Below, in pieces: positions 1 to 33,480 of a stretch of 33,480 nucleotides of DNA (position 1 is the stretch's first letter; every line of letters begins with the position of its first letter). Under the pieces are notes generated by a model that worked only from the letters and a program-made list of their open reading frames with translations, searched no databases and was not told the DNA's origin. The DNA comes from a virus: IMG/VR virus record IMGVR_UViG_3300028591_000144; one strand, given 5' to 3'. Both the position numbers and the translations under genes were made by a program.

Positions 1-160
1 GTCCTTTTCTCTCTGTTCTTTTTTTTTTTTTGTTGGGGGGGGGGGGGGGGGGGGAGTTACACCTGAGAGTGCCGCACTACTCTTCTATCGGGAGGATTCA
101 GAGTCTCGGCGCGCAGCCAGAGAGGGCGCCCCGGACAAACGTCCCCGTAGTCTAGTCTGT
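1..160. other. GC-rich terminal segment with T13 (19-31) and G20 (35-54) homopolymers
   Basis: Homopolymer runs and about 60 percent GC read directly. Unlike the rest of the window. Possible contig end or two-colour poly-G artefact, or a genome terminus. Confidence 0.5.
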
Positions 161-200
161 CCCTGCTGGGATGGGTTGGGCCGCAATATTCCGAATTTAA
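158..200 (+). repeat. Module-A G-triplet box copy 1 (CCTGCTGGGATGGGTTGGGCCGCAA)
   Basis: Member of a 12-copy family CNGTGCTGGGWWGGGNTGGGNNGCAA. Confidence 0.7.
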
Positions 201-421
201 CAAAACAAAACATAACGAAAAAACGACAAGCGGAAGTGTATAACATTGTCCAGAACTATTCTTTCCCGAAAGAAAAAGGCATGTCGTGAGAAGCCCCTAA
301 AATAGGGGCTTTTTTTGATATACGAAAAAAAATATTGCTAAAAAATTTTTTTTGATTTATAAAGAAATCACAACAGCAGAGCAAACAAAAAATCTTTCGA
401 CTCTGCAAGAAAGGAAAGAAA

Positions 422-622
422 ATGAAAGCAATGAAAGTAAGAGTATGCGTGCAGGCATATGACCCTGCATGGTATGAGGAAGAAGTTGTCCTTGTGCATG
501 AATACAATGGCATGGACGTCAAAAGCGTCCTGCATGGCATTGAAGAATATCGCCGTGCGCAAGGTGACGGCGAAGGCGGTGTGGTGTTCGTTACCGCCTT
601 CGTAGAAAAGGGGGAAGAATAA
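422..622 (+). CDS. hypothetical small protein (66 aa)
   Basis: ORF track. SD AAAGGAAAG upstream. Follows a module-A leader hairpin gcagag/ctctgc. Confidence 0.55.
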   Translation: MKAMKVRVCVQAYDPAWYEEEVVLVHEYNGMDVKSVLHGIEEYRRAQGDGEGGVVFVTAFVEKGEE

Positions 623-826
623 ATGATAGTATTCTTTGCAATCGCTTTTGCAATAGTGAGCATTGTGTTCGCTATTGTGAGCGTGACAACAGCTACCTTG
701 ACCATTCAGATTGACGGCGAACGCACCGCCGTCTTTTACGGATGGAAAAGTTTCTGCTGGTACCGCAAGAACTGCGGTACAAAGCGGACACGCTACAGGT
801 TAATCAAAATTGAGGGGCTCTTTTGA
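623..826 (+). CDS. hypothetical protein with hydrophobic N-terminus (67 aa)
   Basis: ORF track. Start overlaps previous stop (TAAATG). Followed by terminator. Confidence 0.5.
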   Translation: MIVFFAIAFAIVSIVFAIVSVTTATLTIQIDGERTAVFYGWKSFCWYRKNCGTKRTRYRLIKIEGLF

Positions 827-839
827 GTCCCTCAGAACA

Positions 840-873
840 GACCTCGGAGAGAAAACTCCGAGGTCTTTTTTTT
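840..873 (+). terminator. rho-independent terminator
   Basis: gacctcggag-agaaaa-ctccgaggtc followed by T8. Confidence 0.8.
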
Positions 874-907
874 GCCTTACGATACCCCGACATAGCAAAT
901 CTATTCG

Positions 908-950
908 CCTGTCCCTGCTGGGATGGGTTGGGCCGCAATGCCTGCTGATT
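908..950 (+). repeat. Module-A G-triplet box copy 2
   Basis: gtccctgctgggatgggttgggccgcaatg. Confidence 0.7.
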
Positions 951-1043
951 TCAGTTACAAAAGTATTACGAAAAAAACAAAATCCTGGGCAACAAAAGCA
1001 AGTTGTGACTGTCAATTCCCGAAAGAAAAGAGTATGCCGCCAA

Positions 1044-1069
1044 AAGCCCCTAAAATAGGGGCTTTTTTT
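1044..1069 (+). terminator. module-A internal hairpin agcccct-aaaat-aggggct + T7
   Basis: Perfect 7-bp stem plus T-run, immediately upstream of the module promoter. Equivalent hairpin in every module-A copy. Confidence 0.6.
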
Positions 1070-1087
1070 AATATGTTGAAAAAAATA

Positions 1088-1116
1088 TTGCAAAAAAAAT
1101 TTTTTTGATATAAGTT
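1088..1116 (+). promoter_or_regulatory. module-A promoter TTGCAA-17-TAAGTT
   Basis: atattgcaaaaaaaatttttttgatataagtt. Same ATATTGCAA -35 context as second-half promoters. Hexamers read from sequence. Confidence 0.5.
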
Positions 1117-1206
1117 GTGATTGTCCTCAGCGAGAAACAAAAAAAACGGCACGCACCACCGCAAGGGCGTGAAACTCCGTAGGCTGTAGGACAGGAAGGA
1201 AAAACC
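1117..1206 (+). promoter_or_regulatory. conserved structured 5' leader (nested hairpins gtcctcagc/gctgtaggac and cacgc/gcgtg)
   Basis: Identical about 90-nt leader at 1117-1206, 3352-3442 and 5383-5461. Covarying variants elsewhere. Confidence 0.55.
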
Positions 1207-1599
1207 ATGAAGATCGAGAATTACAATCACTACAGCAGAAAGCAGGTCAACTATGGCCTGTGTGCAGGCCGTCACGATATGCCGGTTGATGAGTGCATCT
1301 TTGAGGATACACTTGATCCGACAGATTTTGACGGAATGACCCGTGTGGCCGCACGGGAATTGAAGCAGTACCGCGGCCGCAATATCCATCTGGTGGTGTA
1401 TGCCACCGGATTGACGGCCGCAATGATTGCGGTCATCAACGTTTGCGCCGCATGGCGCATTGACCTTACGGTCATGCACTATGACCGTGCAACGGGGGGC
1501 TATCTCCCCCAAACGGTCATTGAAAGGCCGTACTGCGTGTACTGCGGGGCTGAGTACCCGCTGAACGCGCAGGAATGCCCGGAGTGTCAGGCCACCTGA
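1207..1599 (+). CDS. hypothetical protein, C-terminal CxxC...CxxC zinc ribbon (130 aa), about 55 percent GC
   Basis: ORF track. SD GGAAGGAAAAACC. Motifs CVYC and CPEC at C-terminus. Confidence 0.65.
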   Translation: MKIENYNHYSRKQVNYGLCAGRHDMPVDECIFEDTLDPTDFDGMTRVAARELKQYRGRNIHLVVYATGLTAAMIAVINVCAAWRIDLTVMHYDRATGGYLPQTVIERPYCVYCGAEYPLNAQECPECQAT

Positions 1600-1610
1600 C
1601 ACTCCACAAA

Positions 1611-1637
1611 GGTAGACGGAACGCCTTAAAGACTCCG
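1611..1637 (+). promoter_or_regulatory. 27-nt intercistronic box B copy 1 (GGTAGACGGAACGCCTTAAAGACTCCG)
   Basis: Exact 27-mer directly after the stop codon and before the next SD. 12 copies in the window. Confidence 0.75.
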
Positions 1638-1662
1638 AAACATTTATATAGGAGGAAGAAAA

Positions 1663-32125: not shown

Positions 32126-32154
32126 TTGACAGCTTTAACCAAATATGATATAAT
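32126..32154 (+). promoter_or_regulatory. sigma70-type promoter TTGACA-17-TATAAT (TG-extended), tandem promoter 2
   Basis: Hexamers read from sequence. Confidence 0.8.
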
Positions 32155-32233
32155 AAAAACACCAAGAGCAAGAGTAGGTCAAGATTCAAAATGTGCGCCT
32201 TGAAAAATTTCTTGGAAGAGCCGAAAAAAAGTC

Positions 32234-32262
32234 TTGACAAACTTAACCAGATATGATATAAT
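32234..32262 (+). promoter_or_regulatory. sigma70-type promoter TTGACA-17-TATAAT (TG-extended), tandem promoter 3
   Basis: Hexamers read from sequence. Confidence 0.8.
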
Positions 32263-32426
32263 CTGGTTGTAAGGTAAGAAGCAAGCCAAGTGATGAGAAA
32301 ACTGATAGTCGGGTGAGAGAGAAGCGGTTACTGCTAATACACCTGCGCTAAGCGACTCGTAAAAATAGCTAAAAGCAAAAACAAAAAACTTAAGTGTAAT
32401 GAAAATTTAGTAAAGAGGTTGATACT

Positions 32427-32777
32427 ATGTCTACTAAGAAGATGTCCTATGTTACTGCCGTTGCCACTGTCCTCGAGGGTGGAGAGATCACTGAGGAAGT
32501 CCGTGAGCGTCTGGAAGCCCTGAAGGCTTCGCTGGAGAAGCGTGCTTCTCGTAAGTCTGAAGGCCCGACCAAGGCTCAGAAGGAGAACGCTGAGCTGGCT
32601 GAGAAGATCTACGGGGCTATGGTCCCTGAGGTTGAGTACAGCAATGCGTCCATTGCTGAGCTGCTTCCCGAGCTTGAGGGTGCAACCCCGCAGAAGATTA
32701 GTCCTCTGATGAAGCTCCTCGGTGAGCGGATCGTGGCCACTAAGGTCAAGGGCAAGGCCGTCTATCGGCTGGCCTAA
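32427..32777 (+). CDS. hypothetical protein (116 aa) with GC-rich, strongly biased codon usage. Lys/Glu/Ala-rich, possibly nucleic-acid binding
   Basis: ORF track. SD AAAGAGGTTGATAC. About 160-nt leader fed by three tandem strong promoters. Followed by terminator 32791-32826. Confidence 0.7.
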   Translation: MSTKKMSYVTAVATVLEGGEITEEVRERLEALKASLEKRASRKSEGPTKAQKENAELAEKIYGAMVPEVEYSNASIAELLPELEGATPQKISPLMKLLGERIVATKVKGKAVYRLA

Positions 32778-32790
32778 AAGATAGAGGGTA

Positions 32791-32826
32791 AGCTACTATA
32801 AGAAAGCCCCTACTGAAAAAGTAGGG
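32791..32826 (+). terminator. rho-independent terminator
   Basis: aaagcccctact-gaaaaa-gtaggggcttttt. Confidence 0.9.
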
Positions 32827-32836
32827 GCTTTTTGTT

Positions 32837-32875
32837 GGCCGATTGTTTGCGCGCGTCTCTTGCGCAAACAATCGG
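32837..32875 (+). repeat. hairpin-C family member, clearly separate from the adjacent intrinsic terminator
   Basis: ggccgattgtttgcgcgc-gtctct-tgcgcaaacaatcgg + TATTTAAG. Confidence 0.75.
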
Positions 32876-32936
32876 TATTTAAGTTTTTATATAATTTCTA
32901 CAATTTTTATACTATATATTTGTGCAATATTCCATA

Positions 32937-32965
32937 TTGCAATTTTCCTAAAAATATAGTATATT
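32937..32965 (+). promoter_or_regulatory. sigma70-type promoter TTGCAA-17-TATATT
   Basis: Hexamers read from sequence. Confidence 0.7.
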
Positions 32966-32997
32966 ATAATTACCAAAAAGATAAAGGAGATATTCAG

Positions 32998-33165
32998 ATG
33001 GATACTATTACAATTACAAAGGATAAAGCTATGTATGCGTTTTGCGCTTCTACTTGCGGTTGTGTTAAAGCAATCGATTGTGTCTACTATGGAAAATGCC
33101 CTGTTTGTTGTGAAGCAAGATATTTTCTTCAACGGCTGTATGAAAATCGGGAAAAAGAGGGGTAA
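32998..33165 (+). CDS. Cys-rich small protein (55 aa, CASTCGC...CPVCC)
   Basis: SD AAAGGAGATATTCAG. SD-proximal ATG preferred over the long track ORF. Confidence 0.6.
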   Translation: MDTITITKDKAMYAFCASTCGCVKAIDCVYYGKCPVCCEARYFLQRLYENREKEG

Positions 33166-33221
33166 TTAAACTCCTCTAACCACCCTTTTGCGTCGTTCAC
33201 AATTTATTTATAATTCATCTA

Positions 33222-33249
33222 TTGACATTTTAAAATTTTGTGGTATAAT
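33222..33249 (+). promoter_or_regulatory. sigma70-type promoter TTGACA-16-TATAAT (TG-extended. TTCACAATTTATTTATAATT upstream family)
   Basis: Hexamers read from sequence. Confidence 0.75.
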
Positions 33250-33278
33250 GAAACTACCAAAAGGAAAGGAAACAAAAA

Positions 33279-33479
33279 ATGAAAATCTATGTTGTAATTG
33301 AAGATATTGACGATTATCCCGAAGATGGCGGCGGTGAATATCCTGATGCGATTTTTTTGAATTATAACAATGCAGAAAAATACGCAAAAAGAAAGAAAAA
33401 AGAAGCTAACGCTTGGAAGAAAACTAATGTCTTTTATAGAATTGAAACTTGGGAAACTGCTGATGAAAAGGAGAAATGA
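33279..33479 (+). CDS. acidic/basic mixed small protein (66 aa)
   Basis: ORF track. SD AAAGGAAAGGAAAC. Confidence 0.6.
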   Translation: MKIYVVIEDIDDYPEDGGGEYPDAIFLNYNNAEKYAKRKKKEANAWKKTNVFYRIETWETADEKEK

Positions 33480-33480
33480 G

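Follow-up and report, generated by a model that had tools for sequence, protein, structure and literature searches.

T4-like phages have hyperplastic regions in which promoter-early stem-loop (PeSL) modules have been described (Arbiol et al. 2010, PMC2839356; Comeau et al. 2014, PMC4122927), and in phage SPO1 the host-takeover module packs 26 genes into 12.4 kb (Stewart et al. 1998; PMC6873191). It is to these known kinds of region, the early host-takeover type and the hyperplastic PeSL type, that we compare the DNA analysed here, the virus record IMGVR_UViG_3300028591_000144 (the window, by which we mean the whole stretch of 33,480 nt), which is likely to be the left-terminal accessory ('hyperplastic') or early region of a large uncultured tailed phage of the rumen. 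What is new is the size of the region and its terminal placement as a single array, in an unrelated and probably TAG-recoded lineage of rumen phages; a hairpin-promoter module of fixed geometry with a conserved loop, together with a second cassette system built from the repeats D7, D9 and D5; and the almost complete absence of known protein families. The terminal early regions of phages are the home of host-takeover and anti-defence genes, and the window is several times larger than the textbook examples.

A gene caller based on start codons and ribosome-binding sites (RBSs, of the Shine-Dalgarno type) proposed 111 candidates on the plus strand and 22 on the minus strand of the window. The curated, non-overlapping set comprises 85 open reading frames (ORFs), all on the plus strand, of 36-189 amino acids (aa; median 68) and none longer than 570 nt. 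Almost all ORFs are preceded by a GGAGG RBS of their own and begin with ATG; the genes are arranged in operons of one to five, and the coding density is 61%. The isoelectric point (pI) is below 5 for 44 of the 85 products and below 4.5 for 30 of them, and there are seven pairs of paralogues. A preliminary description of the sequence had listed about 90 plus-strand ORFs, none above 600 nt, with many acidic products, zinc ribbons and duplicated families, a description that holds, with two zinc ribbons matched by Pfam. Its claim that each gene has its own promoter and terminator was overstated, given the operons and the lack of consensus promoters in the first 11.3 kb, and the two-part architecture of the window, its mosaicism at the level of cassettes and the link to stop-codon recoding had escaped it. 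Several further ORFs of 15-27 aa, outside the curated set, code for hydrophobic peptides, while the ORFs at 4428-4595 and 8451-8621 are probably not genes, because both overlap conserved leader or promoter repeats.

Small genes, strong early-type promoters and RBSs, short operons, a terminal position and many acidic products are features that the window has in common with the SPO1 module, the pre-early region of T5 and the early region of T7. It differs from the SPO1 module in holding at least 85 genes in 33 kb, and in its relatives more than 20 kb of further micro-genes follow past a gene for a PcfJ-like protein. No homology to the early proteins of the SPO1 group (gp37-gp60) or to Herelleviridae was found by megablast, in which 25 kb of the window had no match among 50,697 phage records, or with PHROGs; a PcfJ-like C-terminal domain, at 26-29% identity, is all that is shared with Herelleviridae.

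The window is made of two parts, regions A and B (Table 1), at whose boundary the GC content drops from 40-48% (1-11300) to 30-38% (11800-33480), with a GC skew that is positive throughout; the two parts may have different histories or expression regimes. Between 11501 and 33480, the plus strand contains 34 sites that match the sigma-70 consensus at 10 or more of its 12 positions, 20 that match at 11 or more, and 8 that match at all 12, against 7.7, 0.63 and 0.02 expected from dinucleotide shuffles and 9, 1 and 0 found on the minus strand. From 1 to 11.3 kb, no site reaches 11 of 12. The -10 boxes end about 30 nt 5' of start codons. Two classes of promoters can be distinguished, class I, with the sigma-A consensus TTGACA-17-TGnTATAAT, and class II (Table 1), whose -35 box lies 90-91 nt 3' of the core of a hairpin in the eight to ten clearest modules. 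A further motif, TTGTGCAW, is present in 12 copies, against an expectation of 2.9. The plus strand carries 11 of them, and nine of these boxes precede a -35 box by 17, 27 or 31 nt. Terminator-like sites are about 2.5-fold enriched (36 against 13.3 expected and 22 against 9.6 in the two halves), with about 32 on the plus strand. The high density of promoters in the second half, as well as that of terminators, had been pointed out in the preliminary description and is borne out by these counts. Since translation appears to be of the Shine-Dalgarno type and the promoters are of the sigma-A type, a host among the Firmicutes is indicated, and both kinds of signal fit the Gram-positive-type host that had been proposed.

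The hairpins that accompany these promoters form a family with a long stem and a loop of conserved sequence (Table 1). In an alignment of 33 distinct copies, from the window and its relatives, 95.8% of the cells are paired and compensatory changes are seen in 11 of the 15 pairs, while none of 500 shuffles reached the observed covariation score and slid controls paired at 53% or less. By analogy, hairpin and promoter together would play the part that PeSL modules play in T4-like phages. As in these modules, a stem-loop is combined with a strong promoter of the sigma-70 type and with AT-rich upstream DNA, many copies are interspersed with small genes of unknown function, and indels and replacements between close relatives end at motifs or at gene boundaries. 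There are also clear differences. The PeSL hairpin lies inside the promoter or overlaps it, whereas that of the window is placed at a fixed distance of 90-91 nt upstream of the -35 box and has a conserved 9-nt loop; PeSL modules are found in several short regions between core modules, whereas here a single array, at a probable genome end, runs uninterrupted over at least 33 kb, with a second and different cassette system, that of D9, D5 and D7, beside the hairpin-promoter modules; and the host is Gram-positive-like instead of Gram-negative, with no T4 core genes seen in the window. If the comparison is right, the mechanism of the 'mobile regulatory cassette', known from T4-like coliphages, would also operate in an unrelated lineage whose host is of the Gram-positive type.

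A comparison of the window with one close relative, the ENA contig NODE_1634, yielded 12 collinear blocks with 69-95% identity (87-95% in all but three), between which there are at least 10 indels or replacements of one to five genes. Breakpoints are found at start codons or RBS leaders (1666, 17402, 19257, 19677, 21617, 23065 and 28364), just past stop codons or at terminators (837, 8313 and 33168), and within regulatory modules (2245, 3380, 6772 and 32106). The operon at 6773-8312, which of the two contigs only the window has, carries duplicated D9-D5 modules on both flanks. Two other, more distantly related contigs, L008 and L009, differ by one extra gene that has a D7 at either boundary. 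Conserved regulatory DNA beside unrelated genes, together with indels of gene size, is as would be expected from recombination between portable regulatory cassettes. The shuffling of cassettes as such is well supported; that the turnover of genes proceeds by recombination at the conserved regulatory modules is the reading that we find reasonably probable.

Phage origin is also well supported. The exact proteins of the window are recorded on one contig of 97,480 bp from the JGI, of which the window is taken to be the end, and they recur on numerous short contigs of ENA and Logan that come from projects on the cattle rumen (scaffold names WILK20 and STEW19). At least 10 of its small protein families are found on L005, a viral contig of 239.6 kb in IMG/VR, whose architecture is like that of the window, with 21 perfect consensus promoters on the plus strand in 20 kb and tRNAs interspersed; a 199-kb JGI contig is a close relative of L005. 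Altogether, the viral relatives are contigs of 115-240 kb. On one of them, of 115.9 kb, which has a member of the family of the gene at 22321-22863, the array of micro-genes borders on a divergent block of large genes, among them one for a YonG_N protein. These data, together with about nine matches to PHROGs and the recoding of TAG in relatives, uphold the origin from a large phage that the preliminary description had proposed, as does the lack of matches to D7 and to the neighbouring PcfJ-like protein in 185,579 GTDB species genomes. Directly past the micro-gene array of the 199-240-kb relatives, a protein of 780-815 aa is encoded that contains the shoulder domain of the major vault protein (PF11978; L023 11787-14129 and L024 11682-14129) and has no PHROG match.

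The window begins with low-complexity sequence that abuts position 55. In three independent assemblies, namely the window and the ENA contigs k141_3027199 and NODE_1634, the G-rich junk differs and the abutting base is the same. Because different junk meets the same base in three assemblies, a fixed physical end of the genome at this point is the simplest reading, and position 55 is the probable terminus, the poly-G being most simply taken as the no-signal artefact of two-colour Illumina chemistry.

Taken in this way, the arrangement suggests how the region might work. The end of the DNA that enters the cell would bring in some 85 very small genes, each of which points inward. Host RNA polymerase would start, in region B, at some 35-40 consensus promoters, and transcripts would be kept short there by the conserved family of 15-bp hairpins and by ordinary terminators. 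Class II promoters and the region-A module have conserved upstream boxes (TTGTGCAW and ATATTGCAA) and non-canonical cores, and would probably be controlled by a phage factor, which would give rise to a temporal cascade. The hairpin-plus-promoter module, the RBS leader, the D9-D5 module and the 27-nt D7 would provide portable homology, and recombination between them would insert, delete and swap gene-sized cassettes, giving a hypervariable gene content. Finally, the lineage would read TAG as sense in other genes, while the terminal region, by avoiding TAG, could be translated in the standard code before a code switch. That class I promoters are immediate-early, with class II and D5 dependent on a factor, is a tentative assignment, made because of the conserved ATATTGCAA and TTGTGCAW boxes and the non-canonical core of D5, its sole evidence. 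Early timing, virulence, regulators, a recombination mechanism and host-takeover or anti-defence roles are what we infer from this arrangement; because the regulatory elements are unusually clear, promoter classes, factor binding and the exchange of cassettes are directly testable.

Several points weigh against a terminal early region of a large phage, or against parts of the scheme. In the 33.5 kb in view, no capsid, terminase or polymerase gene of the phage itself is seen, and the large genes beside the arrays of relatives have no structural matches in PHROGs or Pfam, those of L023 matching PHROGs of unknown function only; moreover, the viral status given by IMG/VR is a database label. The poly-G ends could be a real homopolymer that is hard to sequence and breaks assemblies, instead of flanking a terminus. 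Canonical host promoters are lacking in region A, which nevertheless occupies the extreme end of the genome, and the early timing is a suggestion drawn from the position, the type of promoter and analogy. Selection for intact genes, instead of recombination at motifs, could in part account for the breakpoints at gene boundaries, and, because one close pair was compared, the two are inseparable. As for the code, none of the loci fetched contains a suppressor tRNA, and recoding in this phage itself would follow from that of its relatives.

It can also be the case that the region is a phage accessory one and not an early one, i.e. an island of the moron type or expressed in lysogeny, belonging to a temperate or pseudolysogenic phage and served by constitutive promoters. 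Autonomous units of promoter, gene and terminator are the very definition of morons, and the acetyltransferase and the putative protease encoded in the window (Table 1) could serve host benefit or superinfection exclusion. We regard this as unlikely, since no integrase, repressor or attachment site was seen in the window or among some 60 kb of flanking sequence from relatives, no prophage copy is present in the GTDB genomes, and more than 85 genes, a terminal position and promoters of consensus strength resemble the early regions of lytic phages.

Region A has a different organisation from the rest of the window, the repeat families found in it being D1, D2, D5, D7 and D9. Its cassettes consist, in this order, of the G-rich element D9, about 130 nt of A-rich DNA, a weak hairpin with the promoter-like element D5, a conserved 5' leader, and one to four genes separated by D7. 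All 12 copies of D7 are intergenic and on the plus strand; they start 6-10 nt past a stop codon, and in 11 of the 12 an RBS and an ORF follow about 25-39 nt downstream. The element is nearly invariant, also in distant relatives with unrelated flanking genes, folds weakly (-5 to -8 kcal/mol) and has no dyad symmetry. It had no match in IMG/VR or in the GTDB species genomes, and it is present in two further JGI contigs, L008 and L009. The chances seem even to us that D7, as judged from its sequence and placement, is a recognition site for a phage factor and not mere homology, candidate modes being an operator or 'stoperator'-like block, an RNA-processing or translation signal, and a recombination site. 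The irregular spacing of the copies, 240 to 1900 nt, led to the rejection of a CRISPR-like array. Also rejected was a mimic of 16S helix 45 together with the anti-Shine-Dalgarno sequence that would sequester the next RBS, because the CUCC:GGAG pairing, present in about half of the minimum-free-energy folds, is trivial and weak.

By analogy, the stoperators of cluster A mycobacteriophages and the start-associated sequences (SAS/ESAS) of cluster K (PMC3203893, PMC9283540) would be the closest counterparts of D7. All of them are short, asymmetric intergenic motifs, present in about 10-30 copies in one orientation and kept beside unrelated genes. D7 differs from them in its length (27 against 13 nt), in being anchored to the upstream stop codon and located 25-39 nt before the next start instead of 3-8 nt, in the lack of a Shine-Dalgarno sequence, and in its confinement to 11 kb at a genome end.

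D9 is located at the 3' ends of operons. A variant of it, GCGCTGTGGGGTGTGTTGGG, occurs 18 times in 11.6 kb of L008, with a spacing of about 500 nt among the last 12 copies, and in the copies inspected it stands directly 3' of a stop codon and upstream of a promoter. Its resemblance to GCTGGTGG or GCGCGTG is loose and its orientation wrong for protection of the left end, so that a Chi-like site was rejected. In L008 (300-480, 1260-1400 and 2350-2470), repeated boxes of the ATGCATAAATATTCAT type lie between the D9 variant and a canonical TTGACA-17-TATCAT promoter; they look like operator arrays, which the window lacks. In D5, TTGCAA is followed by a 15-nt spacer and TGATATAAG, an extended -10-like box without the T at -7; a conserved GTTGTRATTGTC and then a leader hairpin follow on the 3' side. 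No consensus fits D5 as a Bacteroidetes-type, an SPO1 middle or late, or a T4 MotA-type promoter. Runs of about 22 A are present in 5' leaders just upstream of RBSs, at 8552-8573 in region A and at 11886-11907; they are of the slippage-prone type and could modulate expression or transcript stability.

An invariant 27-nt element that is strictly oriented, lies 6-10 nt past stop codons and bounds a clean one-gene indel would also be expected if region A were an integron-like gene-capture array, in which D7 is a site of recombination or processing specific for a phage enzyme. The proteins of region A are, in addition, extreme orphans, none of the 22 matching a PHROG family and that of gene 9017-9388 forming one single cluster among 5.8 billion. 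Against this, the integrase and recombinase families searched for are not represented among the 85 proteins or the neighbours seen, and there is no tyrosine recombinase IntI near the array; D7 follows ORFs but lacks the inverted repeats of attC sites, so that a match to integron attC was rejected; the other indels end at RBSs, start codons and D9-D5 modules, not at D7; and a duplicated unit (4538-4915 and 5825-6207) goes past D7 on both sides. We therefore consider gene capture of this kind quite improbable.

To the right of the window, two more small genes are followed by that of the PcfJ-like protein (381 aa, PF14284), 3' of which, in relatives, there are genes for two DnaQ-like exonucleases (phrog_20187 and phrog_192) and for an NT5C-like nucleotidase. 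With tblastn, the PcfJ-like protein matched 65 plasmids of Enterococcus and Streptococcus at about 25% identity, and some 40 phage records contain its C-terminal domain, among them those of Herelleviridae of about 150 kb, at 26-29% identity. At E = 1e-3, the full-length protein had among phages distant matches of this C-terminal domain only, and a neighbouring fragment of 273 aa had none by tblastn at E = 1e-5. Neither the protein nor its profile found anything in IMG/VR, the JGI metagenomes or the GTDB species genomes.

The family of this neighbour is named after the conjugation operon of pCF10, and unidirectional genes for small acidic proteins at a DNA end would fit the leading region of a conjugative element, so that, together with the plasmid matches, the window might be thought to be the leading region or an accessory island of a large conjugative plasmid or integrative and conjugative element of Firmicutes. 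Islands of this kind carry small anti-defence genes, all in one direction, that reach the recipient before the others. However, because the PcfJ-like domain is common to Enterococcus plasmids and Herelleviridae (25-29% identity), it cannot tell plasmid from phage. Neither an oriT nor a relaxase, a type IV secretion component, SSB, ArdA or PsiB was found in the window with its 85 proteins or in the roughly 60 kb of relatives' flanks, nothing related was found in the GTDB species genomes, the relatives are on IMG/VR viral contigs of 199-240 kb, the PHROG matches point to phage, and recoding of TAG, as seen in relatives, is a trait so far described in phages. A conjugative origin is thus very improbable, and a large phage remains the preferred source.

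Gut phages in which the stop codon TAG is recoded to glutamine (code 15) were reportedly described by Borges et al. in 2022. The 85 ORFs of the window end with TAA in 70 cases, with TGA in 14 and with TAG in one, and the chance of one TAG or fewer is 9e-4, given that 10.5% of the out-of-frame stop triplets are TAG. In relatives, TAG is found inside conserved domains. The match of a gene of L018, for a secreted protein with a phosphodiester glycosidase domain, to NAGPA (E = 1.6e-28) spans three TAG positions, and a second ORF of the same locus has six; L018 is on the same scaffold as L007, whose proteins are about 80-90% identical to those of the window for most of the genes in common. Two in-frame TAGs are present in L024 and nine in a 579-aa gene of L027. 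The identification of the latter protein as a terminase was not supported and is not claimed, as the version with TAG translated as Q matched no Pfam family. In L023 and L024, the same DNA was treated differently by different gene callers. The tRNAs found in the window and in 14 related loci, which are parts of genomes, are Ser(CGA)-like, Lys(TTT) and Glu(TTC) only, none having the suppressor anticodon CUA.

The conserved domains read across TAG indicate that this codon has been recoded to sense in the relatives, and it is somewhat more probable than the opposite that recoding of the whole lineage, as suggested by these sequences, applies to this phage too. The in-frame TAGs within conserved domains of relatives, together with a window that almost never stops with TAG, resemble the code-15 gut phages (PMC9523058, PMC11210395), from which the locus differs in that no suppressor tRNA is present in the fetched loci and that its low coding density results from regulatory DNA and not from mis-called genes. 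According to one hypothesis, recoding withholds or delays late genes, early proteins being encoded in the standard code 11 (PMC9523058). Because the region avoids TAG (one in 85 stops), its translation under the standard code of the host would be possible before any code switch, and the better reading of the window is as the standard-code-compatible part of a probably TAG-recoded lineage, in agreement with that hypothesis. If this link is true, the region would be a concrete example of the early programme in standard code that the code-switch hypothesis predicts. A bolder combination, in which the first 11 kb are a dedicated phage array for gene capture and expression, whose factor-recognised D7 and D9 delimit and control single-gene orphan cassettes by RNA processing or operator-type shut-off, and the whole TAG-free 33 kb are a standard-code first act before the TAG switch, is rather improbable. 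That the micro-genes are an annotation artefact, normal genes chopped by recoded stops, as the use of TAG as sense in relatives and the short genes and 67-70% coding density of recoded phages under table 11 (PMC11210395), compared with 61% here, might suggest, can practically be dismissed, because, with TAG taken as a sense codon, the longest plus-strand ORF has 201 codons and the number of ORFs of 150 codons or more rises just from 5 to 7, nearly every ORF has its own RBS and ATG, the gaps between ORFs are occupied by conserved promoters, covarying hairpins and repeats, the small ORFs are kept, gained and lost as units in relatives, and gene callers on independent assemblies yield the same small genes.

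That the content is largely undescribed, as previously stated, was confirmed by the searches with the 85 proteins. Pfam recognised one GNAT acetyltransferase and two zinc ribbons, and nothing else. About nine proteins, all from region B, match PHROG families, which are of unknown function, and NCBIfam and PADLOC gave nothing convincing. A phmmer search of PDB sequences with the concatenated window proteins gave no match; its sensitivity is limited, because even the GNAT had none. Gene 32427-32777 found nothing in IMG/VR. The GNAT is the sole clear match to an enzyme family in the window. Known anti-defence or host-takeover families were not identified with Pfam, NCBIfam, PADLOC or PHROGs; that such functions are present among these proteins is a reasonable expectation. 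Because almost all the families have no known relatives, the window offers candidate inhibitors of bacterial processes at high density. The family of the putative metallopeptidase comprises 104 clusters, all of them from metagenomes only, and the zinc-ribbon protein and its paralogue, which are 77% identical over 78 aa, both match phrog_20898. With Rfam, the whole window had nothing at gathering score with E up to 1, and neither a tRNA nor an HDV-like or theta ribozyme nor a riboswitch was found.

Table 1. Coordinates of the features of the window and of TAG-containing genes in related loci
Feature	Position	Strand	Remarks
Low-complexity poly-T/poly-G assembly junk	1-54		First real base is 55 (AGTTACACCT...)
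Region A	55-11316	+	About 10 operon cassettes
D9, G-rich element (GTGCTGGGTAGGGCTGGGCAGC...GCCGAG)	Starts 163, 915, ~2050, 3153, 4096, 5174, 6555, 8332, 9439, 10547, 11284	+	Within 163-11315
D5, promoter-like element (AAAAAATATTGCAAAAAAAATTTTTTTGATATAAGTTGT)	Starts 331, 1084, 2219, 3319, 4265, 5341, 6722, 8500, 9607, 10715	+	Within 331-10753
D7 (GGTAGACGGAACGCCTTAAAGACTCCG)	1611-1637, 2942-2968, 4848-4874, 6132-6158, 6371-6397, 7337-7363, 7735-7761, 7999-8025, 8957-8983, 10091-10117, 10386-10412, 11240-11266	+	27 nt, 12 copies
Tiny hydrophobic peptide MLTIIIFMILGSLFD	6425-6472	+	Paralogues at ~10447-10494 and 12094-12144
Region B	11800-33480	+	About 60 micro-genes in short operons; about 34-40 sigma-A-type promoters
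Perfect (12/12) promoters	15042, 23279, 23518, 26715, 29135, 32126, 32234, 33222	+	
Class II promoters (TATTGCAATTTTCCTAA...TATATT/TATAAT)	-35 starts 12996, 15721, 16484, 17212, 18119, 19183, 22261, 23004, 25814, 27373, 29517, 31937, 32937	+	Within 12996-32965; repeats D3, D4, D8
Long hairpin family	12276-12311, 12900-12935, 13384-13421, 14108-14145, 14921-14956, 15623-15661, 16385-16422, 17114-17150, 18021-18059, 19085-19123, 20325-20363, 22162-22200, 22905-22943, 24205-24240, ~25714-25760, 27273-27310, 30247-30283, 31837-31874, 32838-32876	+	About 19 copies within 12276-32876; 14-15-bp stem, 9-nt loop GCGTYCCTT, then GTTT/CTTT
DUF8033/phrog_4264 protein, 99 aa	12474-12773	+	
GNAT acetyltransferase, 134 aa	14292-14696	+	Pfam Acetyltransf_1, E = 4e-6; PHROG acetyltransferase match; kept in L009 and L010
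Acidic zinc-ribbon protein, 189 aa	17426-17995	+	N-terminal domain has a paralogue at 28387-28656
Putative small zinc metallopeptidase, 180 aa	22321-22863	+	Invariant HELGH motif
tRNA-Ser(CGA)-like element	26135-26215	+	ARAGORN call; in a 715-nt gene-free gap; odd long D-arm hairpin
TAG-containing genes in relatives	L018 14935-15705 and 18136-18918; L024 19541-20245; L027 653-2392	L027: -	2-9 in-frame TAGs

Some minor features deserve mention. The tiny hydrophobic peptides (MLTIIIFMILGSLFD, MLIIIVFFILGSLFD and MLTIIIFFILGSLFEA; a further one at 2996-3079) are encoded by the last ORF of operons, usually immediately 3' of a D7, and analogous operon-end peptides of 14-15 aa (MFIIVLYFLMSLMNY) are found in L008 (~4850-4895) and L009 (~2800-2845); they could be membrane-active peptides or regulatory ORFs of the leader type. 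A Cys-rich frame (...LAKLCASCDNCAECAIREYCGKLPLEY*) at 30496-30630 has a good RBS and no ATG, GTG or TTG at the expected start, and may be a gene with a non-canonical start, for which ATT and ATA are the sole candidates. In the 123-aa product of gene 9017-9388, 19 residues (LSVRAYNLLARW...NMGSKTLAEY) weakly match, by Pfam (E = 0.18), the helix-hairpin-helix in the C-terminal domain of the RNA polymerase alpha subunit, which is intriguing beside promoters rich in A/T tracts; with such a score and no homologues to build a profile, the identification was put aside as a hint.

Among the non-coding elements, the one called at 26135-26215 is, from its sequence, apparently a conserved tRNA-like element, since ARAGORN makes the same tRNA-Ser(CGA)-like call in relatives (L014 2923-3003; L019 8339-8419 and 10536-10616); the Rfam tRNA model does not match it. 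Five ORF-free stretches of 120-300 nt are fed by promoters (12100-12395, 25850-26134, 26265-26384, 27410-27680 and 30480-30740) and are predicted to fold more stably than shuffled sequences (z = -2.4 to -4.7), so that they are candidates for small RNAs or structured leaders. Finally, the repeats at 25705-25861 and 27264-27420 are 94% identical.

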